Virus record (IMG/VR): IMGVR_UViG_3300049859_000063 | Location: 1 to 48,594 of that record | Direction: 5' to 3' (one strand) | DNA from: a virus | Lineage: Duplodnaviria > Caudoviricetes | DNA: 48,594 nt | Shown: piece after piece, positions 6,652-48,400 of the stretch | Position numbering within the stretch: the stretch's first letter is position 1 | How the letters are laid out: the number at the start of each line of letters is the position of its first letter | Program-made: the position numbers and the translations under genes | Notes under the pieces: generated by a model | What the model was told of the DNA's origin: nothing | The model's input: only the letters and a program-made list of their open reading frames with translations | Database searches by the model: none

Positions 6652-6682
6652 CGGTTGACAGTGGTTATTGCTGTAAAACAAT

Positions 6683-6711
6683 ATCGTAGCGTAGGTTCAA
6701 GTCTATGTAAA
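6683..6711 (-). promoter_or_regulatory. Putative sigma70-type promoter for the packaging/late operon
   Basis: Minus strand TTTACA (6711-6706), 17 bp spacer, TACGAT (6688-6683), upstream of TerS. Confidence 0.5.
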
Positions 6712-6775
6712 GCCCACGTTATCGATCATGGTGAAACAGGCGTTCAGGCACGCTGCAAACAGGCAATTATTGATA

Positions 6776-7128
6776 ACTGCTTAACTGCATATCTACGATC
6801 ATCTTCTGCTCATCTTTTTGTCTTCTAAGTTGTTGATATTATTCTATTACTGCTTAACTGCATATCTTTTATAATAAATAACTATATATTATAGTGTTGT
6901 ATATATACAACATGTTGTTGTATATATAAGAATCTCTATATAGGTTTTTGGCTCTAAGTTGGGAGATGGGCAGTTGGGCAGTTGGGCAGATTATCTATCA
7001 AATCATCATGTTAACTAAAAAAGATGTGCAATAAAACTGCTCGTCTTTTCTCCCGCATCTCTACGCACGCTAGAGTTTCCGCATCTCTTTGTATGCTAGA
7101 GGCTCCCGCATCTCTTTGTATGCTAGAG
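6776..7128. repeat. Putative replication origin: AT-rich non-coding region with iteron-like repeats
   Basis: ACTGCTTAACTGCATATCT at 6776-6794 and 6849-6867. AT-rich core ~6860-6945. GGGCAG(TT) x3 at ~6968-6990. CCGCATCTCTnnGnAnGCTAGAG x3 at 7053, 7079 and 7106. Lies just downstream of the primase-helicase. Confidence 0.65.
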
Positions 7129-7138
7129 TTTCGGACAC

Positions 7139-7161
7139 AAAAAAGGGGCTTACCGCCCCTC
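7139..7161 (-). terminator. Intrinsic terminator after primase-helicase
   Basis: Minus strand AGGGGC-GGTAA-GCCCCT followed by a T run. Confidence 0.7.
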
Positions 7162-7169
7162 TGTTGATG

Positions 7170-9413
7170 TTAGATGAATTTAGCTTTTATATAATAGCCT
7201 CGCATTCCTTTTGAATCAGCATGTTTTTTAAAACCTGCTTTGCTTAAAATCTTAGCTCCTTTGTTCGTGTGAGCTTTAGTTACGTTCGCAATTCCCGAAC
7301 GAATTAATATCGCAGTCACGTTTAAAAACTCAAATGCTCCTGTTTCAGGGGCGTTTGTCAAATGAAAATGGTTACTAATCATCTCCTCGATAGGGCAATC
7401 GGCTTGAAATTCAGATTCTATTTCAGATTGCCTGTTTGTTAATTCTGCGTTTAACCACCACTCAGCACCGCCTATATATAAGTTCCAGCATTGCGCCCAG
7501 AGCTGCTGTAAGTCGATATTAGTTTCGTATAAAGGAGTCGCCGCAAACACTTCGAGGGCTAGGAACCTACGATTACCCGTATCGTCGATCAAGAATGATT
7601 TGTCATTAACAGATGCAAAAAACGCCGTGGTTCTTGGAAAAGTTACGGCCTCCCTGTCGTAAGGCAATCGAATAATGTCGTCTGTGGCTGACATGAACGA
7701 CTTCAACTTAGAATGATCACTTTTTCTAAAAGTCGCATCAACTTCCCCCAATTCAACAATCCAGTGACGAATTGCTTTTAGTTGGGAATCCTTATCATTT
7801 AAATCCAAAGTGGCCCCGCTAAGGATGTAATCTCTAAGTTCTTTTGGTAACAATGACCCAATCCATTTAGTTTTCCTCAAACCCTGCTTGCCTTGAAATA
7901 CCAGTACCGATTCGAATTTAGGCAGAACGTTTGGTATCGGAGAACTTCTAGCGTAATCCATTGCCGCCACACATTGGATCATCCAAATACGCATCACCTC
8001 ATTGCGATATTCAACCTTATCAGGCGCAACCATTGCAGTATTGCAGAAGGCTTGTAATCTATCAACGCCGTCCCAAGGTACTGATGTCACCCAATCCTTG
8101 ATGGGGTTAATTGGATTATCTTTAATCAATATCCCTATGTTATCTACCATTCCTTCGGCCACATCGTTCAAACATAACCCTTGACGAATAGTTTGAATTA
8201 TTATATTTGGGTCGCCTACATCAACTTGATTCGGTATAGATATGATCGGCTTTTTCTTAAGCACATCATATGCACATGTAATACCATAAGACTTTAAGAA
8301 GTATTCGAGATTTAGAATAGTTTTGAGTGGTTTGTTTTTATAATCTTCGTTCGGCCATTTGCCTTCGAGCATTTTATCCTTTCTTATATCAAGCAAAGGC
8401 TCTTCATTAGAAGCAACAAACCCTGATTGACCGAAACCGACTGTGGTTGGATCGATCTCCACCCTTGCCCGTGGGTTGACCCAACCGAACAGCTGCGCTT
8501 GTGTAAACACCGCTTGGAACCCGGTTCTATCGCAAGCGAGATGGTTGTCCCACTTCTCGCGGCATACTTCATCACAGGCGGCGTCCGCTTGATCCTGGTC
8601 CATTGTCGGCGGGTAATGGCGCAATGATGCCCGTGAGTATCTATAGAACAGTTCGTACATGCGTTCGTCATCTGGATTGAACAACCGGTTGCCCATCGCC
8701 GCCCAATCGATATACGAATAAGCCTCTTTATTGCCAGCATTCCACGACTCTGCATTCGATTTATTGATGAAGTCAATCGCACTTGCAAGCTCTGCCATCT
8801 GAGCATCGGTAGCGAAATCTAACGGTTCGGTTCGTACAACTGTATCCTGGACACCCGTATTTAACCCAATCGGGAAGCTAGGTTTAATTGGCAGTAGATC
8901 GATTGGCGTACCGTCGATGGACCATACTGCATGTGCGTAGCCTTCTAACGCGCCGATGTGGAATGTCTGCGAATCACGAAATGATTCGGACGCGAGACGA
9001 CCTCCAAGTATGGTGTTAATCTTACCGACCATCGCCGCACGTTCTGCCCTGGTAACCGGCTTCGACAACGGGGCCAGCACGTGCCAACGAGGCGCGTCTT
9101 CGGTGTAGCGTGCGGAGCTCTTAATGATGCACCGAACACCTTCCTTAGCCAGTAATCGATAGCCTTCTTGGATAGATAGCTCCCCTGCATCGTAATCGCA
9201 TTCAACGCCGGTTATTTGTAGTATGTTTCGATCAATGCGAAGACAGTTTTTAGCGCTACGCTCATCGCCGAAGGCGGCTAATTTGATCAATGGCATTTCC
9301 GCTTTGTCCGAGTATATCGGCAACGAATCGAGCCACGGTTTGACTTCCGACCAATCTAAGTCATACTCTTGCTTAGACTGCGCGGATCGGTCGGGGAATA
9401 ACGTGATAATCAT
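7170..9413 (-). CDS. DNA primase-helicase (N-terminal primase/PriCT-like region, C-terminal VirE/VapE-type P-loop domain)
   Basis: Motifs VPWDGVDRL, Walker A FQGKQGLRKT, Walker B WIVELGEVD, IRLPYDR, FLIDDTGNRRF. N-terminal GVECDYD and PRWHVLAPLS. Start ATG 9413 with RBS CAGGA. Confidence 0.88.
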   Translation of the reverse strand: MIITLFPDRSAQSKQEYDLDWSEVKPWLDSLPIYSDKAEMPLIKLAAFGDERSAKNCLRIDRNILQITGVECDYDAGELSIQEGYRLLAKEGVRCIIKSSARYTEDAPRWHVLAPLSKPVTRAERAAMVGKINTILGGRLASESFRDSQTFHIGALEGYAHAVWSIDGTPIDLLPIKPSFPIGLNTGVQDTVVRTEPLDFATDAQMAELASAIDFINKSNAESWNAGNKEAYSYIDWAAMGNRLFNPDDERMYELFYRYSRASLRHYPPTMDQDQADAACDEVCREKWDNHLACDRTGFQAVFTQAQLFGWVNPRARVEIDPTTVGFGQSGFVASNEEPLLDIRKDKMLEGKWPNEDYKNKPLKTILNLEYFLKSYGITCAYDVLKKKPIISIPNQVDVGDPNIIIQTIRQGLCLNDVAEGMVDNIGILIKDNPINPIKDWVTSVPWDGVDRLQAFCNTAMVAPDKVEYRNEVMRIWMIQCVAAMDYARSSPIPNVLPKFESVLVFQGKQGLRKTKWIGSLLPKELRDYILSGATLDLNDKDSQLKAIRHWIVELGEVDATFRKSDHSKLKSFMSATDDIIRLPYDREAVTFPRTTAFFASVNDKSFLIDDTGNRRFLALEVFAATPLYETNIDLQQLWAQCWNLYIGGAEWWLNAELTNRQSEIESEFQADCPIEEMISNHFHLTNAPETGAFEFLNVTAILIRSGIANVTKAHTNKGAKILSKAGFKKHADSKGMRGYYIKAKFI

Positions 9414-11799: not shown

Positions 11800-11833
11800 T
11801 TGACATCATATGATCTATCATCTATTATGTCAA
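11800..11833. promoter_or_regulatory. Overlapping opposed sigma70 promoters (bidirectional element)
   Basis: Plus: TTGACA 11800-11805, 17 bp, TATTAT 11823-11828. Minus: TTGACA 11833-11828, 17 bp, TATGAT 11810-11805. Confidence 0.7.
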
Positions 11834-11872
11834 GCAATCCGCTACACGCAAGAACTGGCGTGAAAATAAAGT

Positions 11873-11925
11873 TTGACAAATGCGACAAATGCGATTACAC
11901 TTTAACCGTACTTTAACAACAACCA
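11873..11925 (+). promoter_or_regulatory. Early promoter (family member) driving the recombination/replication arm
   Basis: TTGACA 11873-11878, 17 bp, TACACT 11896-11901, then the conserved TTAACCGTACTTTAA leader shared with promoters at 19229, 21119 and 24524. Confidence 0.75.
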
Positions 11926-11945
11926 ACCAACAAGAGAGAACTAAC

Positions 11946-15312: not shown

Positions 15313-16134
15313 ATGAAAAAGATAATTTTAGCTCTTTGCATTCTAATAATATCAACATCTTCCCATGCATACGACATGCGCGGGTATTTCCCTACTACAC
15401 AACGGGTAAATCAATATGTCGATAATGCTGGAAACTACAAACAGACTTACGTGTTTACGCCAAACAGTGTGGGGTATGTTCCACTATATAACGCATATTT
15501 GACTATAAACAAACCAGGGCAGGTTTATACTTGGCAGAAGACTTATTTAATAAACGGTGCTAACTGTACAAAAACAGTAGCCGTATTGCTCTTCGGCGAC
15601 GACCAAACGATTACAGAAGTCGGTGACTGGTATTCAAGTCAATCGAGCGGCGGATGTACGCCGGATTCTGTCTCAGGCTACCGCAATGCCAGCACGGGAC
15701 AGCCGACAGGGTTATTGTGGAGCGGTGGCATTGCCGAGATGCAAGTTATTAGCCAAGATTCGCCGGGAGCCGCATACAACTATAAGAACTGGAGTGCGTT
15801 CAGCAAAACCGGCATCATCGAACATCTTGACACGATGCTTGTGAATGGTCACACTTATTCGGATGTGGTTCACATTATCATGTATCACGGCACCAGAGCG
15901 CCGACCCCTAAACAAGTGCGTTGCGTTGGCCCAATTGCGGCTAATGGTGGTTATTATCAGTCATACAAGGATTATAATAGTTATGCGATGGAATTATGGC
16001 TGGCAAAGGGTATTGGTACAATCAAAGAAGATACTCCGTTTATTGAAGACGCAAGTTACTGGGGCTGGAATAACTGCGTAGGAAATTATCTGACTGGCGA
16101 TAAATCGTTAGAGAGATATTTAATATGGCAATAA
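15313..16134 (+). CDS. Secreted hypothetical protein
   Basis: Signal peptide MKKIILALCILIISTSSHA; Tyr/Trp-rich; contains MELWLAKGIG. Confidence 0.8.
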   Translation: MKKIILALCILIISTSSHAYDMRGYFPTTQRVNQYVDNAGNYKQTYVFTPNSVGYVPLYNAYLTINKPGQVYTWQKTYLINGANCTKTVAVLLFGDDQTITEVGDWYSSQSSGGCTPDSVSGYRNASTGQPTGLLWSGGIAEMQVISQDSPGAAYNYKNWSAFSKTGIIEHLDTMLVNGHTYSDVVHIIMYHGTRAPTPKQVRCVGPIAANGGYYQSYKDYNSYAMELWLAKGIGTIKEDTPFIEDASYWGWNNCVGNYLTGDKSLERYLIWQ

Positions 16135-16219
16135 TGTTTAATCCAATAGGAGGTATTCATGAGTTAGTTAATTTAGCAGTAGGGTATTTAATTTTAATTT
16201 TAATCTGTTCGAGGGTTTT

Positions 16220-16927
16220 ATGAAAAAAATTGCTTTATGTTTAATTTTGATGTGTGTCGCCGCTGGCGTTCATGCTACACCGGGTACGCTATTGTTTATT
16301 GGTGCTCAAAACTCCGGTAAAACGATGGCGGATCGATACAATCCTAGCCCTTGGGCTGTTAATGGTGGCACCTATGTGACTTTGGTCGATGCATTCTTGA
16401 GACAGTATCAAGGTAACCCACCTTTCACGATTAATAGGGCCGTAGCATGGTCTAGTTCTTATACTTACGATTTCCAAATGAGCGGCGCTACATTCCATTC
16501 ATTAGGTTATTGGGATCAATATATGATGGGCGCGTATGGCGCGTTAAACGGACCTAGCCGAGCAGCGCCTTGGCCTACGTCCAATCTTAAATCCGTTATA
16601 ATCGATATTACAAACGATTGTTTTAGAAATACTTGTACCGGTCAGCAACAACAAGCTGTATTTGATGCGGTGCAGGCGGTTATCAATGGCGAGTCGCCAT
16701 ATGGTCGAAAGACAGTTGTGATTAATTATCCATACAGCGGCGTGTCGGGGCAAAACACCACATTCACTAATGCGTTTAATACTCACGTTTGGACTGGTAA
16801 TTATTGCGTGGCTGATATTTATCAGAATGTTACAACTGATTCATCTGGAGTAGTTTTTACAACAGCTTCGATGAATACCGCCGCAGCTCGTTTAAAAAAT
16901 ACCTTAACTTCATACGGATTAAATTAA
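16220..16927 (+). CDS. Secreted SGNH/GDSL-like protein, apparently degenerate
   Basis: Signal peptide. Block I-like LLFIGAQNS, block III-like VIIDITND, VVINYP; no DxxH motif. Paralog of the next gene. Confidence 0.6.
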   Translation: MKKIALCLILMCVAAGVHATPGTLLFIGAQNSGKTMADRYNPSPWAVNGGTYVTLVDAFLRQYQGNPPFTINRAVAWSSSYTYDFQMSGATFHSLGYWDQYMMGAYGALNGPSRAAPWPTSNLKSVIIDITNDCFRNTCTGQQQQAVFDAVQAVINGESPYGRKTVVINYPYSGVSGQNTTFTNAFNTHVWTGNYCVADIYQNVTTDSSGVVFTTASMNTAAARLKNTLTSYGLN

Positions 16928-16928
16928 T

Positions 16929-17657
16929 ATGAAAAATGTTATTTACTTATTTATTGCTTTATTTATCTTCAGCGTATCTCCGGCTAATGCGGCGGGTACT
17001 ATAGGTATTATTGGCGCGTCAGCAGATAACGGTTGTGAAGCTGAAGCTCCCACGATGTATTGCTTGTACGGCGGCATGTATCTAAGTTTAAGTCAAGCCC
17101 TGACGGCAAATTCGAATTATAATATTTTGACCGCAGCTAATGCAGGCGACTTTATCACAAAAGACGCGCCAAGTGATGTTGGACGTGGGCAAGGCTTAGG
17201 TTTCGAATCCCAATGGTGGAAGATTTGGACTGAAAGTATGGGTTCAGATTACACAACCACATCGCTCAGAGCGTTGGTGATAGATGTTAGTAAAGAATGT
17301 TCAATGCCGTCTTTAGGGTATATCTGTGACCAAACGGCCTTGAATAATATAAATGTCACAATTAATAGAATCATTGGTTATGTTAATACTTATATTCGCA
17401 ATGCTTCTGGCAATAACCGCAACCCAAACTTTAAAGTTTTTGTTTTCGGCTATCCGACATACCAATACTTTGCAAATTCACAAGTTAATTGGTACAACAG
17501 CGATTGGTCAGCAAATGCCGCGTCAAGGGGTGCCATGTACTTTGCGCCGTGGGCAAACGCTACTCCAGGCACTGATTTAATTCATCCTACTTACAGTAGT
17601 ATGTTAAATTCGGCTCTACTAGTTAAGAGTTACCTTGATACGTATGTAACTCTTTAA
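16929..17657 (+). CDS. Secreted SGNH/GDSL-like hydrolase
   Basis: Signal peptide ending ANA. IGIIGAS (block I), TAANAG (block II), VFVFGYP, C-terminal DLIHP (DxxH). Confidence 0.68.
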   Translation: MKNVIYLFIALFIFSVSPANAAGTIGIIGASADNGCEAEAPTMYCLYGGMYLSLSQALTANSNYNILTAANAGDFITKDAPSDVGRGQGLGFESQWWKIWTESMGSDYTTTSLRALVIDVSKECSMPSLGYICDQTALNNINVTINRIIGYVNTYIRNASGNNRNPNFKVFVFGYPTYQYFANSQVNWYNSDWSANAASRGAMYFAPWANATPGTDLIHPTYSSMLNSALLVKSYLDTYVTL

Positions 17658-17707
17658 CTGACATCAACCCAGGCCAAGGACGGCCTTACTCACAGGAGAT
17701 ACTCAAA

Positions 17708-18681: not shown

Positions 18682-19232
18682 TGTTTATCACATTCGAAGG
18701 TCCTGACGGAGTTGGTAAAACGACTTTAGCTACCATGCTAGCGCACACCATTGGAGCCATTCCAACGTCGGCGGCAAAAGGCACCGAGTTCGCAAAATCT
18801 ATCTATGACAAGTATATAGCCAAAAATGTTAGCCTCGATCCAATTGTTCAACAGCATTTGTTTCTGGCAATGCACCGCCAGCATCTCGTTGAAGTCGTTA
18901 AACCGGCAATCAGCAGGGGCGCTCACGTTGTTTGTGATCGATACCTAGATTCGTTTTTCGCCTATGGCACTATGGGAATCCACGGCTGGCAAGACCTATA
19001 TAGACCAATCGAGCCGGTAGAGCCTGACATCACATTTCTATTATGGCGCGAGAATGCGGAAGTCGATGCCACCAACGAAGATAAATTCGACGCAATGAGC
19101 AAAGCGGAGCGTGAGCGAATACATGGTAGATTCTTGATATTGCAGGATATTTTCCCTGACCGAATCAAGTTAATCAACACTGACCAATCTCCGGCCAACG
19201 CTATCGAAGATATTCTTGATTATTTGTCTTGA
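18681..19232 (+). CDS. tmk: Thymidylate (dTMP) kinase
   Basis: MFITFEGPDGVGKTT, VVCDRYLDS, PDITFLL; true start is ATG 18681. Confidence 0.92.
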   Translation: MFITFEGPDGVGKTTLATMLAHTIGAIPTSAAKGTEFAKSIYDKYIAKNVSLDPIVQQHLFLAMHRQHLVEVVKPAISRGAHVVCDRYLDSFFAYGTMGIHGWQDLYRPIEPVEPDITFLLWRENAEVDATNEDKFDAMSKAERERIHGRFLILQDIFPDRIKLINTDQSPANAIEDILDYLS

Positions 19233-19295
19233 CAATATGCAATTTTGCATATAAACTTTAGTCGTACTTTAAAAACAACTTCAGGAGATTACGTC
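19229..19295 (+). promoter_or_regulatory. Early promoter with palindromic operator and conserved leader
   Basis: TTGACA 19229-19234, ATATGCAA-TT-TTGCATAT 19235-19252, TAAACT 19252-19257, leader ...GTACTTTAAAAACAACTTCAGGAGATT. Confidence 0.82.
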
Positions 19296-19568
19296 ATGAG
19301 TGACTTGCAAAAACAATTAAACGACTTCGATAAAAGTTTCGACCCTTCTATTTTTGAACATTGTGTATCGCGCGGCATAATGTTACTACACATCCGCGCG
19401 GAGCAAATGGTCGATGAGGGTTTCACCTGGAACTTTCTAATATCTCGACACAGTATTGAGCGATATATTATCAATCGGCATAGCAATCAAACTATGATGG
19501 CAGCTGTAATCGAGTATGTTGAACACGCTGAGGCCTGTGTCGAATCGTTTAACGGAATAGGGGTGTGA
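19296..19568 (+). CDS. Hypothetical protein (paralog pair A1)
   Basis: Strong RBS; C-terminus ...GFTWNF.I.R...VEH...FNGIGV is similar to that of the next gene. Confidence 0.75.
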   Translation: MSDLQKQLNDFDKSFDPSIFEHCVSRGIMLLHIRAEQMVDEGFTWNFLISRHSIERYIINRHSNQTMMAAVIEYVEHAEACVESFNGIGV

Positions 19569-19570
19569 TT

Positions 19571-19825
19571 ATGGCGACTATTGGACAATATGACCCGAAT
19601 AATTTCAAACATGTTGTTGACTACGGGGTATTGCTACAGATGCATAGGCGACAGATACTTATAAATAGAGGTTTGAAATGGGATATTTCAATAAAAAGAT
19701 GGTTAGTGGAGCAGGCGGTTATTGATAATTATCCGTGTCGCTTAAAAACAATGACGGAATGCGTTGAATATTGCGCGAAAATCACCGAGCTTTATGTACT
19801 TAGGTTTAACGGAATTGAGGTGTGA
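19571..19825 (+). CDS. Hypothetical protein (paralog pair A2)
   Basis: ...GLKWDI.I.R...VEY...FNGIEV. Confidence 0.75.
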   Translation: MATIGQYDPNNFKHVVDYGVLLQMHRRQILINRGLKWDISIKRWLVEQAVIDNYPCRLKTMTECVEYCAKITELYVLRFNGIEV

Positions 19826-19830
19826 TTATC

Positions 19831-20076
19831 ATGCGTGAATTACTTAATAAATTAAACCTTTTAATATTCGGAAACAGAATCACTGTTATAAATGACAACG
19901 AAATAATAGTTTCGGCAGACACCTATGTGGCTATTGAATCTGAACATGCCGATTCATGCAAGGGTTGCGCTTTCAACGTAAAAGGGTCGATGAACTGCGT
20001 ACACTTGAAAGGAGACGCTCCTTGCGGTGACTGGGAACGAAATGATGGACTAAACGTAATATGGGTGAAGAAATGA
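19831..20076 (+). CDS. Small Cys-rich protein (paralog B1)
   Basis: CKGCAF...C...C...RNDG..VIWV. Confidence 0.78.
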   Translation: MRELLNKLNLLIFGNRITVINDNEIIVSADTYVAIESEHADSCKGCAFNVKGSMNCVHLKGDAPCGDWERNDGLNVIWVKK

Positions 20077-20255
20077 ACGAAAACGCATACATAAGCGATA
20101 GTGGTGAAACCTATATCACCGTCTATACTGATGATCCAGCAACTTGCGAGGGTTGCGCGTTTCGTGGTGAAACGTGGGGATTTTGTTGTGAAAACGCCCC
20201 TTGCACTGAAGACGCACGGGACGATAAATGTAATGTAATATGGGTGGCAAAATGA
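20073..20255 (+). CDS. Small Cys-rich protein (paralog B2)
   Basis: CEGCAF...CC...PC...RDD...VIWV; ATGA coupling. Confidence 0.78.
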   Translation: MNENAYISDSGETYITVYTDDPATCEGCAFRGETWGFCCENAPCTEDARDDKCNVIWVAK

Positions 20256-20488
20256 TTAAATTAATTAAGCAAGTATGGTCTTGGTTAGCGCCGGGCCGAA
20301 CTGTGATTAGAATCGACGAGAATTGCATATATGTCGATGGTGAGGAATTTATAGCAGTTGATTCTAACCGACCTTATGTCTGCAAAGGCTGCGCTTTCGA
20401 TAATATCGACGAGTATGCTTGTAATGTTGCGGGATGCGCCGCACGTTCAAGAGAAGACGGTCGCACTATCATATGGGTGGAGAAATGA
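20252..20488 (+). CDS. Small Cys-rich protein (paralog B3)
   Basis: CKGCAF...C...C...REDG..IIWV; ATGA coupling. Confidence 0.78.
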   Translation: MIKLIKQVWSWLAPGRTVIRIDENCIYVDGEEFIAVDSNRPYVCKGCAFDNIDEYACNVAGCAARSREDGRTIIWVEK

Positions 20489-20642: not shown

Positions 20643-21122
20643 ATGGTCACAGTTAGAAGATTAAACGAGTCCGACTTATCGGCAGCCGTTGCTATTATAG
20701 ACACGTGCTGGCCTGACGGGGAGACTTCCAACGAAGCCGGACATGAGATCAAAGCGAGCTTTATGTTGCACCATCCAGGAGTTATTGCTCAAAAGTGGTG
20801 TGGTGCATTTGTCAATGGTGAATTGATTGGCGTGTCGGCTTGGTCACATTCAGGCTTTGCTTCGGATACTTATGCGTTGTGCTGGGCTGCGGTATTATCC
20901 GAATATCGACATCAGGGCATTAATACCATGATGCTGGATTATCGGCTAACAGAGATATATCGGTATCACGGCGAAACGCCGTACAACGTGATGGTCAATA
21001 CTTGGGATAATCAAATGTATCGGCTGAGAGGTTTTGTAAGCGCTATTCCCAACACGCTACCGTTGGCAGAAGGTAGATGTATTTTGTTGGCAACATTCGA
21101 TCCACCTGTAGATAATACTTGA
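20643..21122 (+). CDS. GNAT family acetyltransferase
   Basis: VRRLNESDL, AAVLSEYRHQGINTMM (motif A), MYRLRGF (motif B). Confidence 0.85.
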   Translation: MVTVRRLNESDLSAAVAIIDTCWPDGETSNEAGHEIKASFMLHHPGVIAQKWCGAFVNGELIGVSAWSHSGFASDTYALCWAAVLSEYRHQGINTMMLDYRLTEIYRYHGETPYNVMVNTWDNQMYRLRGFVSAIPNTLPLAEGRCILLATFDPPVDNT

Positions 21123-21186
21123 CAATGTGCAAATTTGCATATATTATTTAACTGTACTTTAAATCAACCCTTCAGAGGATATTATC
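21119..21186 (+). promoter_or_regulatory. Early promoter with palindromic operator and conserved leader
   Basis: TTGACA 21119-21124, ATGTGCAA-AT-TTGCATAT 21125-21142, TATTAT 21142-21147, leader ...GTACTTTAAATCAACCCTTCAGAGG. Confidence 0.82.
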
Positions 21187-21465
21187 ATGAAACTATTAAT
21201 TTTAATCGCGTTACTCATGTTCATTTGGTCTAGGCCTTCCAGCGCAGACACTGCCAGTGACTTAGAGTCTGTTAGCTTTGCATCGGCGCAGTGCAAGAGA
21301 GGTGACAGTCCGTCTTGTAGCGCATTTCCAACCTTACTTAGTATAGCTTGTTCGAACACGCCAAATGGCAAAGCGTGTGCATACATAGAACAGATGCGAG
21401 CAACAAAAACAGAGGATCAACTGTTTAACCTATGTCACACAGGCATCATCCAACTTTGCAACTAA
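21187..21465 (+). CDS. Secreted six-Cys protein
   Basis: Signal peptide; C..GD...C...P..L..AC.....AC..IEQ.......LC..G...LC pattern shared with the next gene. Confidence 0.75.
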   Translation: MKLLILIALLMFIWSRPSSADTASDLESVSFASAQCKRGDSPSCSAFPTLLSIACSNTPNGKACAYIEQMRATKTEDQLFNLCHTGIIQLCN

Positions 21466-21475
21466 GGGGAACGTC

Positions 21476-22054
21476 ATGAAAAAATTAGCACTTAGCGCAG
21501 CGATTTTGACTTTAACCGCATGTAGCGCAGCTGATATACAACACACATTAGATCGGGACTTGCACGCTTTCGATCTAAACAAGCTCACACGGAACCCAAG
21601 CGCAGATGCTTTTGCCGACATAGCGCGTAAAAAAGCGGAAGCAGAACGCATTGCCGCCGAGAAACAACTCGAATACGACAGGGCTGCGCCTGAACGGGCG
21701 GCTGCTGAGAAGCAACGTGAATACGAAGCGTCCCCTCAGTATCGAATCGATAAATTGAAATACTGGCATTCGCCAGCAGGCGCAGCCGAATATAAAGCGC
21801 GGTTGCGGGTTGAAGTTGGAAGCCTTGCTATGTATGACGATTATTGTGAAGCTGGCGACGCCAATGCTTGTCGTATGATACCGGGCCAATTAGAGAACGC
21901 TTGCTTTATCGATCACAAACCAGCTTGCCAGCGCATTGAACAGCTTAAGAAAGCTCCATTGGCAACCCGTCGATATTTATGCAGTCAGGGCATGGATTCA
22001 CTTTGTCTTGGTGCGAATAAGGATTATTACGAACTAACCAAGCGGAGATATTGA
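21476..22054 (+). CDS. Lipoprotein with coiled coil and six-Cys C-terminal domain
   Basis: Lipobox LTAC after MKKLALSAAILT; AAEKQ.EY repeats; Cys pattern as in 21187-21465. Confidence 0.78.
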   Translation: MKKLALSAAILTLTACSAADIQHTLDRDLHAFDLNKLTRNPSADAFADIARKKAEAERIAAEKQLEYDRAAPERAAAEKQREYEASPQYRIDKLKYWHSPAGAAEYKARLRVEVGSLAMYDDYCEAGDANACRMIPGQLENACFIDHKPACQRIEQLKKAPLATRRYLCSQGMDSLCLGANKDYYELTKRRY

Positions 22055-24523: not shown

Positions 24524-24588
24524 TTGACATTATGCAACTTTGCATATATCATTTAATCGTACCTTAAATTAACTTCAGGAGAAAAACG
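24524..24588 (+). promoter_or_regulatory. Early promoter with palindromic operator and conserved leader
   Basis: TTGACA 24524-24529, TTATGCAA-CT-TTGCATAT 24530-24547, TATCAT 24547-24552, leader ...GTACCTTAAATTAACTTCAGGAGA. Confidence 0.82.
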
Positions 24589-24952: not shown

Positions 24953-25342
24953 ATGGAAGAATTCAAATCAATGCTAAGAAAATATCACCGTAAACCCGGT
25001 CCCAATGGCGCAATTGAACCTGTGCGGTGCATGATGCTAACCGAGCATGTCATGATGGCGGAGATGCCCGAAGGTATTCCTCATTGCCTTATTATAAAAC
25101 GGGCGGACAATACGTTTGTGATAACGACAGGCGTTCCGTTACCGGCATCGTGGCGGCATTCATTAAAACTGAGCCCTGATAAAGACCTTATCAAATCAAT
25201 TAGAAACAAGCATCAATTGACCCAGGCGAACGCGGCAGAACTTATATGCCGCACTAGGGAAGCATGGTCGCAGTGGGAACGTGGAACGGCTCGAATGTCA
25301 CCTAAACTGTGGGATATGTTCTTAGCCAAGGTCGGAGAATAA
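24953..25342 (+). CDS. XRE-family HTH protein
   Basis: IKSIRNKHQLTQANAAELICRTREAWSQWERG; start ATG 24953 after GGAG. Confidence 0.82.
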   Translation: MEEFKSMLRKYHRKPGPNGAIEPVRCMMLTEHVMMAEMPEGIPHCLIIKRADNTFVITTGVPLPASWRHSLKLSPDKDLIKSIRNKHQLTQANAAELICRTREAWSQWERGTARMSPKLWDMFLAKVGE

Positions 25343-25626
25343 TGAAAGTTTATTACCAATCGCCAATGGGCGACATCGAAGGGCTTCACGGTGGGTTGGT
25401 TGGAACACGACACCCAGAACTGACTGGCGACGTGTCTCTGTTATGGGGTAACATTACAGGTATTTACGGTGATGTTACCGGGCTACATGGCGACATTTCG
25501 CGGGTGTGGGGATGCTTGACGACATTCATCCGAAGTCACTTGCCAATGAATAATTTCACTGGATGTTGCCAACTTAAACCGGCCATTCTGCTTGGATTTT
25601 ATGGAACTAACGAGGATTTAAAATGA
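25342..25626 (+). CDS. Protein with 7-aa GD(V/I)xxLx repeats
   Basis: GDIEGLH, GDVSLLW, GNITGIY, GDVTGLH, GDISRVW. Confidence 0.65.
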   Translation: MKVYYQSPMGDIEGLHGGLVGTRHPELTGDVSLLWGNITGIYGDVTGLHGDISRVWGCLTTFIRSHLPMNNFTGCCQLKPAILLGFYGTNEDLK

Positions 25627-25964
25627 CCGACGTATTACTAAACGGCTGCATCGTGTCAGTCAAACAAAGCCTAAACAGGCTCTATTACACAGTTGGCGAC
25701 AGAGATGCAACTCATCACTTGCTGAAAATTGTCGCTATTGAGAAAACAGCCAACGGCATCGGCAGAATTGGCGTTACCGAGATCGATTCAGAGTTTGTAG
25801 TCGATAGCACGACGAAAGTCGGAGATTTCATCGACACTCGTACGGGCGACGTTGCGACTAGAATTACAGCTATCATGAAGATAGCCACTGTTGTTGAAAC
25901 CATAAATATAGCCGCTGCCGTGGGCAACATTATCGCAATGGCGTCATTGTTTGTATTTCGATAA
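25623..25964 (+). CDS. Hypothetical protein (paralog C1)
   Basis: FVVDSTTKVGDFIDTRTG motif. Confidence 0.75.
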   Translation: MTDVLLNGCIVSVKQSLNRLYYTVGDRDATHHLLKIVAIEKTANGIGRIGVTEIDSEFVVDSTTKVGDFIDTRTGDVATRITAIMKIATVVETINIAAAVGNIIAMASLFVFR

Positions 25965-25976
25965 GGAGTTAGGATT

Positions 25977-26288
25977 ATGTGTGTCGAAGTTATTACAAAC
26001 AACAAGCACGCCGGTACTATATTGGAATATTCAGATGGACTGTATTATAAGCCCGGCGCATCTGACATTATTCATAAATTGTTAGAAATTTCAAGAATCG
26101 ACGTGTCGAATGACGACTGGCGGTTAGTGGCGGTTACTTCGAACGGAGCCCGATTCGCAGTTGATGATACGGCTCGTGTTGGCGATTTCGTAAACACAGG
26201 CACGGGTCTAGTCGCCAGATTGACCCGTGCATTAATACAAGACACGTGCAACCCTACAACAATTAGATTGAGCGCATTGGAGCTATAA
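25977..26288 (+). CDS. Hypothetical protein (paralog C2)
   Basis: FAVDDTARVGDFVNTGTG motif. Confidence 0.75.
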   Translation: MCVEVITNNKHAGTILEYSDGLYYKPGASDIIHKLLEISRIDVSNDDWRLVAVTSNGARFAVDDTARVGDFVNTGTGLVARLTRALIQDTCNPTTIRLSALEL

Positions 26289-26290
26289 TT

Positions 26291-26605
26291 ATGGGTATGA
26301 GAGCATTAATGATAAGAAAATCGGTCCCGGTCTTGATGGGTCATTGCGATGATTTGCACTATGAGAACGATGGTATTACGCATTACTTGCGAAAAATCGA
26401 AGCCGTTTATGATTCACAAGACGGTAGCAGATTGATTGCACGAACCGAAGAAGGGTTTGAATTTATAGTAGTTGCTGGCACCAGGGTCGGCGATTTTATC
26501 AACACCGAAACAGGTAGCGCTGTTCGGGCAGTAACTGCGATTGTTGAGCTCACCGAGGATGATGAAGTAGACATTTTGATCGCAATGAAATGGAGCAAGT
26601 CATGA
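26291..26605 (+). CDS. Hypothetical protein (paralog C3)
   Basis: FIVVAGTRVGDFINTETG motif. Confidence 0.75.
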   Translation: MGMRALMIRKSVPVLMGHCDDLHYENDGITHYLRKIEAVYDSQDGSRLIARTEEGFEFIVVAGTRVGDFINTETGSAVRAVTAIVELTEDDEVDILIAMKWSKS

Positions 26606-26799
26606 GTGAGATGTGTCGCATTGAAGATATTAGCTATTCGAAAGCTGAAAGCAAACTTATTGCCCGTACTGAAAACAGCCTACGTTTTGAAGTCGATAAT
26701 CTAGCTGAGGTGGGCGATTATATTGATGCGCTTACCGGACACGTGTTTAGAATAGTAGCTAGTGTAATTAGACCCGGCAAGCATTTACTTGGAGAATAA
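26602..26799 (+). CDS. Hypothetical protein (paralog C4, N-terminally shorter)
   Basis: FEVDNLAEVGDYIDALTG motif; ATGA coupling. Confidence 0.7.
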   Translation: MSEMCRIEDISYSKAESKLIARTENSLRFEVDNLAEVGDYIDALTGHVFRIVASVIRPGKHLLGE

Positions 26800-26803
26800 A
26801 ACA

Positions 26804-27529
26804 ATGAAAAAACTAACAGCGGCGGCAGATTGCATCAATTACGCCTATACTGTAAACGCACGTATCGAATCACCTGACGCAAGTCGTACCTTGTTCGAAG
26901 AGACTGGTTTATGTGCCATGTGGGCCGAACCTGATGGGTTGTTGGCTAAGCAAGAACTGTTCGGATTCATCGACGTGTTTGATGAGGGCCACATAGAAGG
27001 CTTTCCAGACGGTAGCGGAGACGTGGCGGTTATTGCGTTCCGTGGCACAGACGGGTTTCACGATTGGTTATCTAATGCGGATCATGATCTCGTTAGCGTA
27101 GATGGGTGCAAGCACGATCCAAAGGTGCATGAGGGCTATTTGAAAATATACAACCAGCTTCACGAAAACTATGTCTTACCGTGGCTCGAACAAAACAAGT
27201 CGATCAAGAATATCATCATAACCGGTCATAGCTTGGGTGCTGCGTTAGCCACATTATGCGCCTACAGATTGCTTGATCGTAACATCGAATTGATCACATT
27301 CGCCAGCCCACGAGTCGGCGATGTTGATTTCTGCATGTTGCTCGAACAACGTTTAAAGAACAACCTGCGGATAATCAACACCGAGGACATTGTTCCAACG
27401 TTACCGCTGCCGACTGATACGCAAGGTTTCAGTCATTGCGGAACGTTGCTGGCATTCACTCTTAATTCTAAGGGGGTAATTGGCAATCATGCAATGAGTT
27501 TGTATAAGAGTGCGACTCCCTACATTTAG
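26804..27529 (+). CDS. Class 3 (fungal-type) lipase, alpha/beta hydrolase
   Basis: IAFRGT, VHEGY, nucleophile elbow ITGHSLGAALA, TFASPRVG, DIVPTLP, C-terminal NH...Y. Confidence 0.9.
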   Translation: MKKLTAAADCINYAYTVNARIESPDASRTLFEETGLCAMWAEPDGLLAKQELFGFIDVFDEGHIEGFPDGSGDVAVIAFRGTDGFHDWLSNADHDLVSVDGCKHDPKVHEGYLKIYNQLHENYVLPWLEQNKSIKNIIITGHSLGAALATLCAYRLLDRNIELITFASPRVGDVDFCMLLEQRLKNNLRIINTEDIVPTLPLPTDTQGFSHCGTLLAFTLNSKGVIGNHAMSLYKSATPYI

Positions 27530-31829: not shown

Positions 31830-31857
31830 TTGACATATAAGCAAATTCGCTTAAAAT
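31830..31857 (+). promoter_or_regulatory. Promoter of the opposite-strand two-gene insert, with a variant operator
   Basis: TTGACA 31830-31835, 16 bp, TAAAAT 31852-31857; imperfect palindrome TAAGCAAA-TTCGCTTA in the spacer. Confidence 0.6.
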
Positions 31858-31906
31858 TGGTCACCTGTTTATCAGATAATAACACAACCAATCAGGAGTA
31901 CACAAT

Positions 31907-32251
31907 ATGCAGGCATCGAAGGCAGTGAGTATCGTCGGACCGAAAGGACCGAAAAAAACCGCGTTGCTACAACGCATTGCGTCGGAGTTCGGAGATTTTC
32001 TCGAAATATCGATAGATGACATGTTTGATCGAGAAAAGTTTAACGACTTTTTGATATTGGGAGTGAAGACAATAATCATCGACGGCACCACTAAGAATGC
32101 ATCATTATGCAATAGATTGCATAAACTGGCATCAAGTAGCCATACCACTGTAGTTGATTCGGACGGCAGATATGTGCGCGTGAGAACCCCTAATTTATTA
32201 TTCAACGTTGAACAAACAGACGGCGGGGCTATCGGTGGAGTGATTTCATGA
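31907..32251 (+). CDS. Small degenerate P-loop NTPase-like protein
   Basis: IVGPKGPKKTALL (Walker A-like), TIIIDG (Walker B-like); RBS CAGGAG. Confidence 0.6.
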   Translation: MQASKAVSIVGPKGPKKTALLQRIASEFGDFLEISIDDMFDREKFNDFLILGVKTIIIDGTTKNASLCNRLHKLASSSHTTVVDSDGRYVRVRTPNLLFNVEQTDGGAIGGVIS

Positions 32252-32673
32252 TGATTGAATCAGAAGTAACATTCACAGCAAGTATTAATAGGACGATTCT
32301 ACGGGTGACCGGTATAACCGGCGGAACACTTAAGATCGGTCACATCGTAACGGGAGCTAGTGTAGCACAAGGAACGGTAATCACCGGTCAAACTAGAGGG
32401 TTGCCGGGGGGTAGAGGGGATTATGTTGTTAACATAGCGCAAACTATCGTTTCTGAAACCATGAGTGCAAATAAATCATGCATAATCACGACCGGAATAA
32501 AATCAGGCGCGACGCTGAAACGACTGAGAAAATATCACAAACTCACTCAGGTCGAGTTTGCTAAGCTGTCGGGCGTGTCTGTTAGGACGATCAGCACTAT
32601 AGAGGTGTACGGGGCGAGAATTAGCACTAAATACGAAGCAGCATTCCTAGCCGTATTCAAATCACTGGGTTAA
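32248..32673 (+). CDS. Fusion of virion-type Gly/Thr domain and XRE HTH
   Basis: N-terminal FTASINRTILRVT...GTLKIGHIVTG...DYVVNIAQT; C-terminal LKRLRKYHKLTQVEFAKLSGVSVRTISTIE. Confidence 0.8.
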   Translation: MMIESEVTFTASINRTILRVTGITGGTLKIGHIVTGASVAQGTVITGQTRGLPGGRGDYVVNIAQTIVSETMSANKSCIITTGIKSGATLKRLRKYHKLTQVEFAKLSGVSVRTISTIEVYGARISTKYEAAFLAVFKSLG

Positions 32674-44878: not shown

Positions 44879-46264
44879 TTATATTACACGGACAGTATGC
44901 CCGCCGGTCGCAGCAGCAATCCACGACAAGTCCACGGTCCGACTATCGGCTGCCAACGAGGCTTGTTGTGTTGCGCTCTTACTCGGTTGTGCTTGAAGAA
45001 TTGCCTTATAAGCAGATTCATGCACCCCGTCAACATTAACGCCAAGCATCTCTAGCGCAGCGCCATAGACTTCGCTAGCACTATCGAACGCAAGTGACAT
45101 TTCACCGACATAAGGCGTAACTATCTTCAACGCCTCATTCATTTCCTGTACACGCTTAACAGCGAGATCGGTGCTTGCCTTAATTGCCGCATCCATCGCT
45201 TTGACACTGACATAGTTCTTCGGTGCCTTCCGTTTAGCATCGGAAGCCATCCGAGGCTTGCCAGTCTCTTCGTCGATTTCTTCAGTCGCATCCATCGCCA
45301 TTTCTTCAGACTCTTCGGTTGATAGCATTTGCTTTACTTGTGCAATTGCGTCGGGATTCAACCCTTGTGCTGTTAGAAACTGCAAGATAGCATCGTGCGG
45401 ATCAGCGTCTTCGGTTGGTTTGTTTTCCTCGGTTGGTGCGGGTGGTTCTTCTTCATCCATCGCCACGACATCGCCGTCGAGACCGTCCAGTAGCTTGGTG
45501 AGGTCTTCAATCGACGCATCGCTACCTAGAACCTTAGCCAACTTCGCCGCAATAGCTGGTTTTTGCAATACCCATTTCTTCGCTGTAATACCCGCAGTTG
45601 CAGCATCAACGTCGAACTTGGAATCCTTCGCTAAAATCTGTTTACCGAGCACAGCTTTGATTGCAACAGCAACCACCCGCCCGGTTAGTCCTCGTCTCTT
45701 CATATCATTAACCCCTTCGTTTATTGAATCGAACACATATACGTCTGAACCTGCACGACCAGCTTTAACCAAAGCCACGTGATTGCCCCGTATATTACGC
45801 ATAATACCATCATAATCTTCACCTTCATAGCTACCGGCTGTCATATCAGCATCGTACCAATATGAACAGCTAATTTCTTTAGCAGATTCGTCTTCGATCC
45901 CATCAATGGCGTCGGCGTCCCATATCGCCAAGCTATTCATCAAGTAAGGTTCTTTGAACACCGCATCACTGCCGGTCGTACCTACAATCGAATCTTTTTC
46001 CGGCTTCTCTGCATTGACTTCGATGTGTTTATTCAATAGCGGTAGATTGTTGAAAGTGGGCGCGGCTTTCTTCAGTTCGTCGGGATCACGCAACATCCGA
46101 TAGAGTTTGTTCGGATCAAGACCGATTTCCTCGCCGCCCATGATTTCACTGCCAGCGTATTCGTTAACAACCGCTTTACTTATGTTCGTAAGGCTGACGT
46201 GAAGCCGCCCATCGACATCTTTAAATCTTACTGTGCTTTTATCGAACGCTAAACCCATTGACAC
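44879..46264 (-). CDS. Prohead protease/scaffold (DUF2213-like)
   Basis: DGRLHV..TNISKA, TFNNLPLL..H, EISCSY, GNHVALV..GRAG; acidic scaffold C-terminus. Start is GTG 46264 or ATG 46258. Confidence 0.88.
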   Translation of the reverse strand: MSMGLAFDKSTVRFKDVDGRLHVSLTNISKAVVNEYAGSEIMGGEEIGLDPNKLYRMLRDPDELKKAAPTFNNLPLLNKHIEVNAEKPEKDSIVGTTGSDAVFKEPYLMNSLAIWDADAIDGIEDESAKEISCSYWYDADMTAGSYEGEDYDGIMRNIRGNHVALVKAGRAGSDVYVFDSINEGVNDMKRRGLTGRVVAVAIKAVLGKQILAKDSKFDVDAATAGITAKKWVLQKPAIAAKLAKVLGSDASIEDLTKLLDGLDGDVVAMDEEEPPAPTEENKPTEDADPHDAILQFLTAQGLNPDAIAQVKQMLSTEESEEMAMDATEEIDEETGKPRMASDAKRKAPKNYVSVKAMDAAIKASTDLAVKRVQEMNEALKIVTPYVGEMSLAFDSASEVYGAALEMLGVNVDGVHESAYKAILQAQPSKSATQQASLAADSRTVDLSWIAAATGGHTVRVI

Positions 46265-46286
46265 CCCCTGATTAGTTGGCTATACT
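46258..46286 (+). promoter_or_regulatory. Near-consensus plus-strand sigma70 promoter, antisense to the late operon
   Basis: TTGACA 46258-46263, 17 bp, TATACT 46281-46286. Confidence 0.8.
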
Positions 46287-46291
46287 ATATC

Positions 46292-46371
46292 ACACAATCT
46301 CCTGAAGGGTTGTAATCTCTGAGGCCGTCGATGGATTTTAAGCCATGTTACCAGTGACGGCCTCTTTTTTT
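46292..46371 (+). ncRNA. Candidate small RNA 2 (~80 nt), anti-Shine-Dalgarno type
   Basis: Promoter-terminator unit with no ORF. 5' hairpin ACAAUCU-CCUGAA-GGGUUGU; complementary to the leaders at 19279, 21165 and 24573. Confidence 0.65.
46321..46371 (+). terminator. Plus-strand intrinsic terminator
   Basis: GAGGCCGTC (46321-46329)...GACGGCCTC (46356-46364) followed by a T run. Confidence 0.75.
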
Positions 46372-47126
46372 TATTCAGGTATCACAGCTCTACTCACGCA
46401 CCGGCAGTTTATCATTTCACCCGGTCTGATATATTCCCCGTCAATATAAGCCCCTTGTTTAATGTCGAACACAAGCTTATCGCGCCCAGCCTTAACATGA
46501 GATTGCCTAGGGGTTTTCCCACCGCCTGAGTGAATCCACACTGCTTTAGTTAAACCGAGCTCTAACTGGCGAGTCGCAACAATCTGCGCAGTAGCTTTAT
46601 TGTTCTGATCACGGGCAATTAGCACAGCTCTGTTTCGAGTTACGTTGTAACGTTTCATCAGCTCATCAGTCATATATTTCAAATCCCGACCGTTTGCAGC
46701 ACTACGCAACACAATACCCTCGATGTCGTCGAAGTATTCGGATGAGATCGATTTGATCAAGCTTACTTGTTCGCCGACAGATGCCTGCATTGTGTTGCGC
46801 ATCGCATCGGTGTATCGGAAATTAACGCTCATCTGTTTGCCGAGCGAATGATCAACACGACGTTTGATAATCTCGCTGAACTTGATAGCAAGACCTCCCG
46901 CTTCATCGGCGAATCGCTTAGACCAACGCCCCCTCAATTTCTTGATACGTGCTTGCAACTCGCTGACCGGACTCGCATCCATTGCTAGGCGCGACTCGTT
47001 GGCTTTGTATGAGGCGCGTAACCAATAGAGCGTGCTTGCTGCCATTTCGTCTATGAGCGATTGCAGCGCTTTGCGGAAATCGGCTTCCGTGCCGACATTG
47101 GGGTGAATAGGCTTCAGCAGTTTCAT
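46371..47126 (-). CDS. Head morphogenesis protein (MuF/SPP1 gp7-like)
   Basis: RA.LIARDQNNKA, W.HS, R.SH, PGEMINCRC; start ATG 47126. Confidence 0.9.
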   Translation of the reverse strand: MKLLKPIHPNVGTEADFRKALQSLIDEMAASTLYWLRASYKANESRLAMDASPVSELQARIKKLRGRWSKRFADEAGGLAIKFSEIIKRRVDHSLGKQMSVNFRYTDAMRNTMQASVGEQVSLIKSISSEYFDDIEGIVLRSAANGRDLKYMTDELMKRYNVTRNRAVLIARDQNNKATAQIVATRQLELGLTKAVWIHSGGGKTPRQSHVKAGRDKLVFDIKQGAYIDGEYIRPGEMINCRCVSRAVIPE

Positions 47127-48400
47127 TAAACGTCTTCTTCCCAATTCAGCGTTACCGCACAGTCTGATGCCAATTGCTGATTAGCAACGACAGTGACTAT
47201 TTCACCTGGATAAACAAACACATCGCGGCCATCTAGCAGCACATCACCACTACTAGCTGAGCGAGCGACGGAGGTGTTAAACACTATGTTGCCTGTGGTC
47301 GTGGGGTTAGATACCGTTCCGGAAACGTCAACGGACACGATACTATTGCCCGAAGTGATGGTATTACCATTATCCCCAGTTGAACCGTTGATCGGAGTGA
47401 ACGAAGGCGAGCCCGTCAGCGTTGCTCCTTTGCGAACGGTAAGGATGCCGATGTTGCTGCCTGACCCCGACCCGCCGTCACCTGTGTAAGACAGACTTCG
47501 CAACCGAATAATCGAACGGTTCGGCACGCCGTTATAGGTCGTGCAATTCTTGATTGACAATATGGCGGTATCAGTGTTAGCTAGCACCGTGGTACGGCGA
47601 GACGTTCCGTTTTGAGGCCCTAAATATAATTTCTCACCGGTCAAGAATATACCGACCGAACCTGAGTAAAGCGCGACATCAGACGCACCGCCACCGCTGT
47701 TGATATTCTCAGCCCACAAGTAGAACGTTGGGTTGCTGAACTCGGTGATATTAGTCGAATTAGCGTACCTGATTGTGTGTACCAGTATGAATCTACCGCT
47801 GATCGGCTCTTGGACAAACCACTCTATGTCACCGTACCCTAGGTAGGGATATTTAATCACCCACACGTTTCCGAATGCCGGATTGATAACCATACCGCTA
47901 GGCCCGGTCCCGTCCAGCTTGTCGCCGTTGAAATTAGCCTGATGAATCCAGTTCTCTACGATAGTGCCGCTCCCACTGTTCCTATGCAGTAGGGAAAAAT
48001 CAACCCCATCATAACCAACACCCACGCCATCGGAATCGGTCAAAGCGCCAAGCACCCTACGGTTATTGATCACACCGGCATCCATCGGACAGGTTATTCG
48101 AATCAGAACACCTTGCCCCGCGCGATATTTAGCCGAGCGTACCGAGCGAAATTTAGCCGTACTGTTCGGCGTTGTGCCGGTCGATAATTTAAGGCGACTG
48201 TTGCTTGTGGTGACTGTGCCCGACCCGGTTGTTGAAGGCACTCCTGTTTGAGTATTGATGCCATACACCCAATCCATTTGAATGATTGGGAACAGTCGAG
48301 TCGTGATTAGATCGCCGAATGCTGACATGTTAGATTTGTCGAACTGGATCGGAAATTGACTCGTGCCCAAGCCCGCGCCGGTTGTTGTTGCTTGTCCCAT
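47126..48400 (-). CDS. Beta-rich (lectin-like) putative virion accessory protein
   Basis: 424 aa; SAFGDL, KYRAGQG, Q.NFNGDKLDGTGPSG, YLGYG, VHTIRYAN; located in the head module. Confidence 0.65.
   Translation of the reverse strand: MGQATTTGAGLGTSQFPIQFDKSNMSAFGDLITTRLFPIIQMDWVYGINTQTGVPSTTGSGTVTTSNSRLKLSTGTTPNSTAKFRSVRSAKYRAGQGVLIRITCPMDAGVINNRRVLGALTDSDGVGVGYDGVDFSLLHRNSGSGTIVENWIHQANFNGDKLDGTGPSGMVINPAFGNVWVIKYPYLGYGDIEWFVQEPISGRFILVHTIRYANSTNITEFSNPTFYLWAENINSGGGASDVALYSGSVGIFLTGEKLYLGPQNGTSRRTTVLANTDTAILSIKNCTTYNGVPNRSIIRLRSLSYTGDGGSGSGSNIGILTVRKGATLTGSPSFTPINGSTGDNGNTITSGNSIVSVDVSGTVSNPTTTGNIVFNTSVARSASSGDVLLDGRDVFVYPGEIVTVVANQQLASDCAVTLNWEEDV

Follow-up and report, generated by a model that had tools for sequence, protein, structure and literature searches.

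The RNA c4 of phages P1/P7 is, in the parts of PMC5320573 that treat it, an RNA of ~77 nt that is processed by RNase P, has three stem-loops and acts by occlusion of a ribosome binding site (RBS), and the RNAs sar, OOP, aQ, STnc6030, PreS and VpdS are described in sections of PMC12197685. SviR has, according to the relevant part of its preprint (bioRxiv 2022.04.08.487710), 5'-UTR targets in both PLE and ICP1, and RBS occlusion was shown for ICP1 gp120. In the cluster K mycobacteriophages Pope et al. found repeated SAS/ESAS sequences, with one inverted copy in four K1 phages (PMC3203893). The sections of that paper concerned with these repeats left it open whether RNA or protein binds them, and their role is still called unknown in the corresponding passages of PMC11373665, section 19 of which places the start of late transcription in Adephagia between genes 92 and 93.

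The window, by which we mean the whole stretch of DNA analysed, is a complete virus record of 48,594 bases with direct terminal repeats. Its gene content is that of a myovirus (portal, DUF2213 protease, major head, sheath and baseplate genes, all on the minus strand), and its plus strand carries replication and small accessory genes; among its 64 ORFs neither an integrase family match nor an antirepressor was found. The nearest cultured phages have Pseudomonas, Aeromonas, Klebsiella, Acinetobacter and Burkholderia as hosts, with identities of 29–55% in the listed protease matches and at most 48% in the capsid protein. Three arrays of small paralogs, for which no families were found, span 19296-20488 (19296/19571 and, with Cys motifs, 19831/20073/20252), 21187-22054 (21187/21476; Cys-rich, with hydrophobic N-termini) and 25623-26799 (25623/25977/26291/26590). 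The regions 15313-17657 and 26789-27529 hold three proteins of 235–273 aa with hydrophobic N-termini and no family, and also a class 3 lipase. The non-coding, A+T-rich stretch 6681-7170, which has short direct repeats and lies between a candidate terminase small subunit gene and the primase gene, is a possible origin or packaging region. The features that concern us here lie at one junction of the head operon:

44879..46258, minus strand: DUF2213 head maturation protease, flanking gene (family search).
46371..47144, minus strand: head morphogenesis protein (PF04233), flanking gene (family search).
46258..46286, plus strand: sigma70-type promoter TTGACA-17-TATACT, 11/12 (motif scan).
46292..46372, plus strand: predicted small RNA of ~80 nt, antisense to the head operon (start inferred, 46292-46294).
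46294..46313, plus strand: 5' hairpin of 7 bp, including 2 G-U pairs, with loop CCUGAA at 46301-46306 (fold prediction).
46321..46372, plus strand: intrinsic terminator with a 10-bp GC stem, an inner 3-bp stem and loop, and U8 (fold prediction).
46331..46357, plus strand: 8-codon frame MDFKPCYQ, its GAGG buried in the terminator stem (ORF scan).

This unit fills the whole gap of 112 bases that separates the head morphogenesis stop (46371) from the protease start (46258). Its promoter (TTGACA at 46258-46263, TATACT at 46281-46286, 17-nt spacer) overlaps the start codon and Shine-Dalgarno sequence (SD) of the protease gene on the opposite strand and holds no palindromic operator; the terminator stem (46321-46364) has a long interior loop, and the U8 tract (46365-46372) overlaps the stop codon of the head morphogenesis gene. 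A first-pass annotation of this DNA had proposed that a promoter and a plus-facing terminator delimit an RNA of ~80 nt at this place and that its 5' hairpin displays CCUGAA. Both proposals were confirmed: the promoter has 11 of 12 consensus positions, 46293-46372 folds on the plus strand at -27 kcal/mol (z -3.4, none of 200 shuffles as good) and ends in U8, and the loop is closed by a 7-bp stem. The minus strand of the unit also folds better than its shuffles (-23.3, z -3.7), and fold predictions favour the plus strand as the transcribed one, since the 5' hairpin, which needs G-U pairs, reaches -5.3 on the plus vs -2.3 on the minus strand, which moreover lacks a U tract. Promoters matching at 11/12 with a 17-nt spacer number five in the window vs 0.15 per genome in 200 Markov-1 genomes, and such a promoter was found together with a terminator in 2 of 200 Markov-1 genomes. 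The RNA had been called ORF-less, which is not literally so in view of the 8-codon frame at 46331-46357; this frame sits inside the terminator stem and is probably incidental. The suggested Rfam search gave no match for the unit at gathering threshold, nor at E<=10 on 46200-46450. CRISPR repeats, too, have families in Rfam, and the same negative result lends no support to the idea of a CRISPR-repeat mimic. The unit has its own promoter and an intrinsic terminator with a U tail, as trans-encoded sRNAs do, and we predict that it is very likely a real small RNA gene.

What such an RNA might act on is suggested by its 5' part. The segment 46296-46313, which holds the anti-SD sequence CUCCU at 46299-46303, reads as the reverse complement of a consensus drawn from the leaders of genes 19296, 21187, 24589 and 31907, all four of them promoter-proximal. 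In sequencing run X7, a contig of 193 bases and depth 2.4 (record 17, 46306-46484) matches the 3' part of the RNA and carries 14 different letters before 46306 that are again anti-leader-like (CTGAAG and then a U/G run); it is either a variant or an assembly error. Strong plus-strand promoters open five operons of the window (11873, 19229, 21119, 24524 and 31830), and further plus-strand matches of 10–11/12 lie at 6655, 9434, 11800, 21087, 24605, 30330 and 33633. Three of the five strong promoters contain a palindromic operator, and four have a GTACYTTAA start; an operator-like palindrome in the spacer of 31830 was not counted, since a fit no worse than its 3 mismatches occurs at 20 places. 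The divergent 11/12 promoters 11800 (plus) and 11833 (minus) overlap within a near-palindrome and promoter 11873 has a direct repeat in its spacer, and 11800-11901 is likely the early control region. The operator and the predicted targets are:

19237..19250, with copies at 21127-21140 and 24532-24545, no strand assigned: palindromic operator in the promoter spacer (sequence comparison).
24953..25342, plus strand: HTH protein, HTH_31/MqsA-like below cut-off, a candidate operator binder (profile search).
19275..19290, plus strand: predicted target, leader of 19296 (90 aa); 16 bp with a 2-nt bulge, net -13.6.
21165..21180, plus strand: predicted target, leader of 21187 (92 aa, hydrophobic N-terminus); net -15.1.
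24573..24582, plus strand: predicted target, leader of 24589 (119 aa); 10 bp, net -10.4.
31884..31898, plus strand: predicted target, leader of 31907 (114 aa); 6+7 bp, net -11.0.
11924..11939, plus strand: fifth site, a weak one, in the leader of 11946, whose promoter is 11873-11901; net -6.5.

All four predicted target leaders are short (30–42 nt) and nearly unstructured, and they share a motif that is conserved beyond the SD. The gene concerned is in each case the first behind its promoter: 19296 behind 19229-19257, 21187 behind 21119-21147 in an operon that continues into the DNA polymerase gene, 24589 behind 24524-24552, and 31907 behind 31830-31857 as the first gene of a two-gene moron that lies antisense in the baseplate region. 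Family and profile searches found no protein family for 19296, 21187 or 31907 and gave only weak winged-HTH-like leads for the product of 24589. The moron (31830-32673, plus strand) encodes the 114-aa protein, which has a degenerate P-loop-like start, and then a 140-aa protein that is a second HTH protein of the window (32251-32673) and combines an HTH_3 domain with a phrog_21413 domain also found in sheath, baseplate and head proteins.

The matches of 12/12, 11/11 and 10/10 that had been reported at 19279, 21165 and 24573 were exact on recheck, and the one at 31892, listed as weak, had been understated, as 13 of 15 bases pair there (31884-31898) and a strong promoter lies upstream at 31830. 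Two other proposed targets look poor: the site at 15299 is buried (net +6.3 kcal/mol), and that at 17693 is weak (-4.3). Arithmetic gives ~0.2 as the expected number of 12-mer matches anywhere in 48.6 kb, and the three exact matches are not three independent events because the leaders are copies of one cassette; the signal is in the position of the matches. We scored the 5' domain against all 64 start regions of the genome with opening costs included. The five best are 21187 (-15.1), 19296 (-13.6), 31907 (-11.0), 24589 (-10.4) and 11946 (-6.5), followed by a sixth at -6.4; each of these top five stands first behind one of the five strong plus-strand promoters, and the gene that directly follows the strong minus-strand promoter 11833 has no match (+4.1). 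Co-folding of the RNA with the predicted 5' UTRs of the top four gives 10–16 bp across the SD at -11 to -16 kcal/mol.

With these four targets fixed, a choice made after seeing them, none of 24,195 genome windows and none of 5,000 shuffles that keep CUCCU (or UCUCCUG) pairs as well. The comparison with shuffled controls that the annotation had called for was also made with free targets (the best 4 of 64) and the anti-SD core kept, and its outcome depends on the scoring: none of 300 shuffles is as good when accessibility is counted (z -4.9), 7 of 300 are as good on pairing energy alone (z -2.0, marginal), and a cruder version with 72 automatically called starts and 60 shuffles was not significant (z -1.3). 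On the first of these measures the RNA behaves as expected of a trans-acting sRNA: it pairs briefly and imperfectly, and more than chance would give, with start regions at several distant places. The strong free-target result leans on the targets being unstructured.

We consider it probable that the unit produces an antisense RNA that acts in trans and prevents ribosomes from binding at several early operons. The proposal that one sRNA silences the early operons is thus retained for the genes behind the repeated promoters, where pairing over the SDs is found in silico, in a layout that recurs elsewhere, and it is dropped for 15299 and 17693, which look like poor targets; the case for silencing in trans is made by prediction and by this recurrence in other records. 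In such a mechanism the loop CCUGAA would meet UUCAGG in the short leaders, the weak G-U stem would open so that 10–16 bp could form across the SD, and ribosome binding to the first gene of each cassette-led operon would be blocked. With no operator in its promoter, the RNA would be expected to accumulate from the start of infection, which might cut early synthesis to a pulse and might also damp a superinfecting sibling. Late head-operon mRNA is complementary to it over its whole length and could either titrate it or be cut. The unit may have originated when an antisense moron promoter at an insertion hot spot came to fire across a leader-like copy.

Since the leaders form one cassette family, the real question is one of function or descent. 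An unlikely alternative is that the unit is a relic, an emptied antisense moron that spans a leftover minus-strand leader or a duplicated RBS and that is perhaps transcribed and regulates nothing; a duplicated RBS is conceivable because the protease gene's own leader resembles the motif. Among 131 distinct morphogenesis-protease junctions (the window included), 33 are shorter than 40 bases, 8 measure 46–79 bases and 89 measure at least 126 bases, and the junction is in this sense an insertion hot spot. In record L018 an antisense promoter of 11/12 sits there in the same register and drives two genes, one RHH-like and one of 183 aa, and Aeromonas phage 2_D05 carries a pair of antisense genes at this place, so this junction is a moron slot. 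The unit has the promoter and terminator of a moron at a variable junction; protein-coding cargo is absent, as it holds only the 8-codon frame. However, an emptied moron would leave an SD in the sense orientation, not an anti-SD, and the minus-strand copy of the leader motif has no promoter and is followed by a frame of at most 2 codons. In a hand alignment over 18 places the segment has 2, 4, 6 and 5 differences to the four leaders, and any two leaders have 4–8 between them (mean 6.5); a drifting sequence should not be closest to all of them. Its likeness to the leaders ends at the SD region of ~18 nt, and the start of the cassette, GTACTTTAA, is absent. Selection to pair with all four leaders accounts for this better than drift, though this falls short of proof.

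Homologs of the unit itself were not found. An ORF-free promoter-terminator unit is absent from the 130 other junctions; blastn of 45000-47500 gave only protease patches of 73–84 nt and blastn of the unit alone only chance matches, the protease as a single query found no loci, and profile scans for relatives reached distant loci only. Pattern scans for the exact anti-leader gave 8 loci, none with the structure, and those for the operator cassette gave no match. Outside the phage's own cluster, the nearest proteins are 42–54% identical over most of the protease, and the morphogenesis protein has three relatives at 66–70% on contigs of 1–1.6 kb. A sister strain (runs X2, X3 and X5; 70 changes in 5,092 bases) has no listed change in 46170-46550, and with only 3 in the protease gene it is too close to be informative.

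The same layout does recur in unrelated records, which also argues against a relic. A pattern of promoter, anti-SD and GGTTG found 16 viral loci, of which 3 fold into the same layout. The strongest analogue (L221 10001-10111; G002:C1:25160) adjoins a sigma factor gene in an unrelated record of 29.6 kb, G002, and has a 12/12 promoter and an RNA of ~77 nt that none of 150 shuffles equals; this RNA mirrors a leader that is repeated, with a small tetraloop hairpin, before at least 7 small genes. A wider pattern gave at least 120 loci from 12 of the 64 parts of the collection, and a terminator hairpin stands at the end of 53 of the 108 distinct matches (the window and L221 included). By hand count, 17 of these 53 face an opposite-strand frame of at least 16 codons, as in type I antitoxins, RNAs that lie opposite their target. 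Terminators occur in 42 of 93 families with the anti-SD vs 27 of 86 with a control pentamer (p 0.066), and a terminator together with a good -10 in 26 vs 11 families; by this comparison short units are common and the anti-SD is only modestly enriched.

We then asked whether each RNA suits its own genome, in a shuffle test on 22 records (three large ones left out, G002 and the window added). All 60 shuffles were beaten in 5 of the 22, namely G002, the window, G012, G020 and G023, and not in the remaining 17; thus 4 of 21 other records pass, of which G002, G012 and G023 had been picked by earlier screens and G020 had not. In G020 (complete, 22.8 kb) the top two targets are the first genes behind repeated sigma70 promoters, as in the window. 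Each of the five passing RNAs prefers its own genome over all 25 foreign sets of start regions. The candidates L226 and L235 have a similar layout and were rejected for want of convincing own targets.

Several further units were seen in these scans. Anti-leader units lie at L287 862-977 (G023) and L516 19815-19909 (G020); one of the two adjoins cro/repressor-like genes and one matches duplicated promoter-leader cassettes. A family of promoter-hairpin-terminator units (L246, L294, L300 and L322; L300 10001-10113) accounts for 11 of the 120 loci listed; its 5' end matches, over 16–17 bases, the RBS of a gene for 109 aa that lies at a distance of 5.5 kb, a second site lies before a HicB-like gene, and the unit adjoins a replication initiator gene. 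A pattern scan of genome contigs gave 30 loci, which were folded and inspected. Six of them (L533, L545, L551, L554, L556 and L558) hold a conserved multi-stem RNA of ~95 nt with a consensus promoter in six Dehalococcoidia MAGs, and L559 (a Thiotrichales MAG) and L530 are chromosome-contig units with the same layout of promoter, anti-SD hairpin and terminator.

It is quite unlikely that the RNA is real and aimed mainly at mRNAs of the host or of competitor phages, its match to the window's own leaders reflecting a common style of strong leader (an A/C-rich run and then CAGGAG). The phage sRNAs PreS and VpdS do act on the host according to sections of PMC12197685, SviR has cross-genome targets in the part of its description cited above (bioRxiv 2022.04.08.487710), and among 1,476 foreign start regions 5 reach a pairing energy of at least -18.7 kcal/mol in strength, the best single one at -20.3 vs -20.6 for the best own target. 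The sum of the best three, however, is -59.2 in the window's own genome vs -39.2 +/- 7.5 in the 25 foreign sets, none of which equals it.

We regard a cis role in the late operon as very doubtful. Transcription collision, or RNase III cleavage of an 80-bp duplex, could tune or delay the head genes, as OOP and STnc6030 act in cis in this way (PMC12197685, in the sections on these RNAs), and the unit does fill the whole 112-nt gap with a promoter over the protease start. Against this, the match to distant leaders would go unexplained, and relatives manage without the unit, their junctions being shorter than 40 nt in 33 of 131 cases. The protease SD (46262-46270) also stays outside the RNA: it falls within the promoter spacer, ~22 nt from the RNA start, and pairing with it in trans nets only -2.2 kcal/mol. 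The further suggestion of cis action on the protease leader is thus not supported, and on these predictions occlusion of the protease RBS in cis is unlikely. Nor does the RNA overlap the RBS or start of any opposite-strand ORF, as cis-antisense RBS blockers such as sar and type I antitoxins do, the longest frame after the opposite AGGAG having 2 codons. Least probable of all is that the RNA shields a protein-binding or nuclease site in the leaders (e.g., that of a phage translational repressor), in keeping with the motif's conservation beyond the SD and with the choice between RNA and protein binding that Pope et al. left open for SAS repeats (PMC3203893, in its discussion of them), or that the unit makes the 8-residue peptide from its GAGG-preceded frame, since a duplex over the SD in all four leaders should block rather than help, and the SD of the frame is buried in a stem and such frames are common by chance.

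If silencing in trans is the correct reading, one inverted, transcribed copy of a leader would silence a whole cassette family at translation, serving both as a timer and as a homoimmunity that needs no protein. Most phage antisense RNAs known so far control a single switch gene; by reading the consensus of a repeated leader, one RNA would bring a dispersed set of operons under control at once, and it could arise in a single step by inverted duplication. Because each phage's RNA mirrors its own leader, such RNAs would be invisible to family searches, and the idea supplies a simple way to predict what the many short promoter-terminator units of phage genomes act on. We put forward more tentatively that anti-leader RNAs are a general layer of phage control that has evolved many times; this possibility would also explain the start-associated sequences of the cluster K mycobacteriophages, unexplained since 2011, and give a directly testable answer for cultured phages as to what the SAS repeats and their single inverted copy do.

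Among known systems, P22 sar, lambda OOP and aQ, and type I antitoxin RNAs resemble the window RNA in being short, with two hairpins, and in having a sigma70 promoter that lies across from a gene start on the other strand. In the account given in parts of PMC12197685, sar, OOP and aQ lie opposite their target, whereas no ORF uses the AGGAG opposite the window RNA and the neighbouring protease SD is outside it. SviR of the phage satellite PLE is likewise an sRNA that a viral element uses in trans, and it has several 5'-UTR targets spread over that element's own operons; it differs in setting satellite against helper phage and in having separate seeds, and the part of its description cited above does not present it as mirroring a repeated leader. 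In the literature searched, mainly outside subscription journals, we found no description of a phage RNA antisense to a repeated early leader.

The likeness to c4 of P1/P7 is closer: in both, a phage RNA of ~77–80 nt has a loop that occludes an RBS in the phage's own mRNA, here by prediction only, and upstream bases give specificity (for c4, the portion of PMC5320573 concerned with it). The window RNA differs in that it has no Rfam C4 match, in that it consists of one 5' hairpin and a terminator where c4 has three stem-loops with a' and b' loops, and in that its targets are the first genes of four dispersed operons in a genome whose 64 ORFs lack a detected antirepressor or integrase. It also seems to be made directly as a primary transcript that ends at a terminator of its own, as suggested by the promoter that directly precedes the hairpin, whereas c4 is processed by RNase P. 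It works like c4 on this evidence and is not a C4 member.

The arrangement as a whole is that of the SAS/ESAS of cluster K. The differences are that sequence and host group are unrelated (the 13-bp SAS itself is absent, the window leaders sharing only its AGGAG core), that function is shown in neither, and that the anti-SAS of Adephagia may lie in a late leader rather than a short sigma70 unit, judging from the sections of PMC11373665 on its transcription. In the right-hand 31–32 kb we count 16 forward SAS in Adephagia and 14 in CrimD with one inverted copy each, which in both phages falls in an SD-complementary predicted hairpin loop, between genes 92/93 and 93/94, respectively. In both cluster K, as described in parts of PMC3203893 and PMC11373665, and the window, an extended SD is repeated before non-structural genes, often with a promoter that contains an inverted repeat, and a single copy stands in the opposite orientation away from any start (PMC3203893, same sections).
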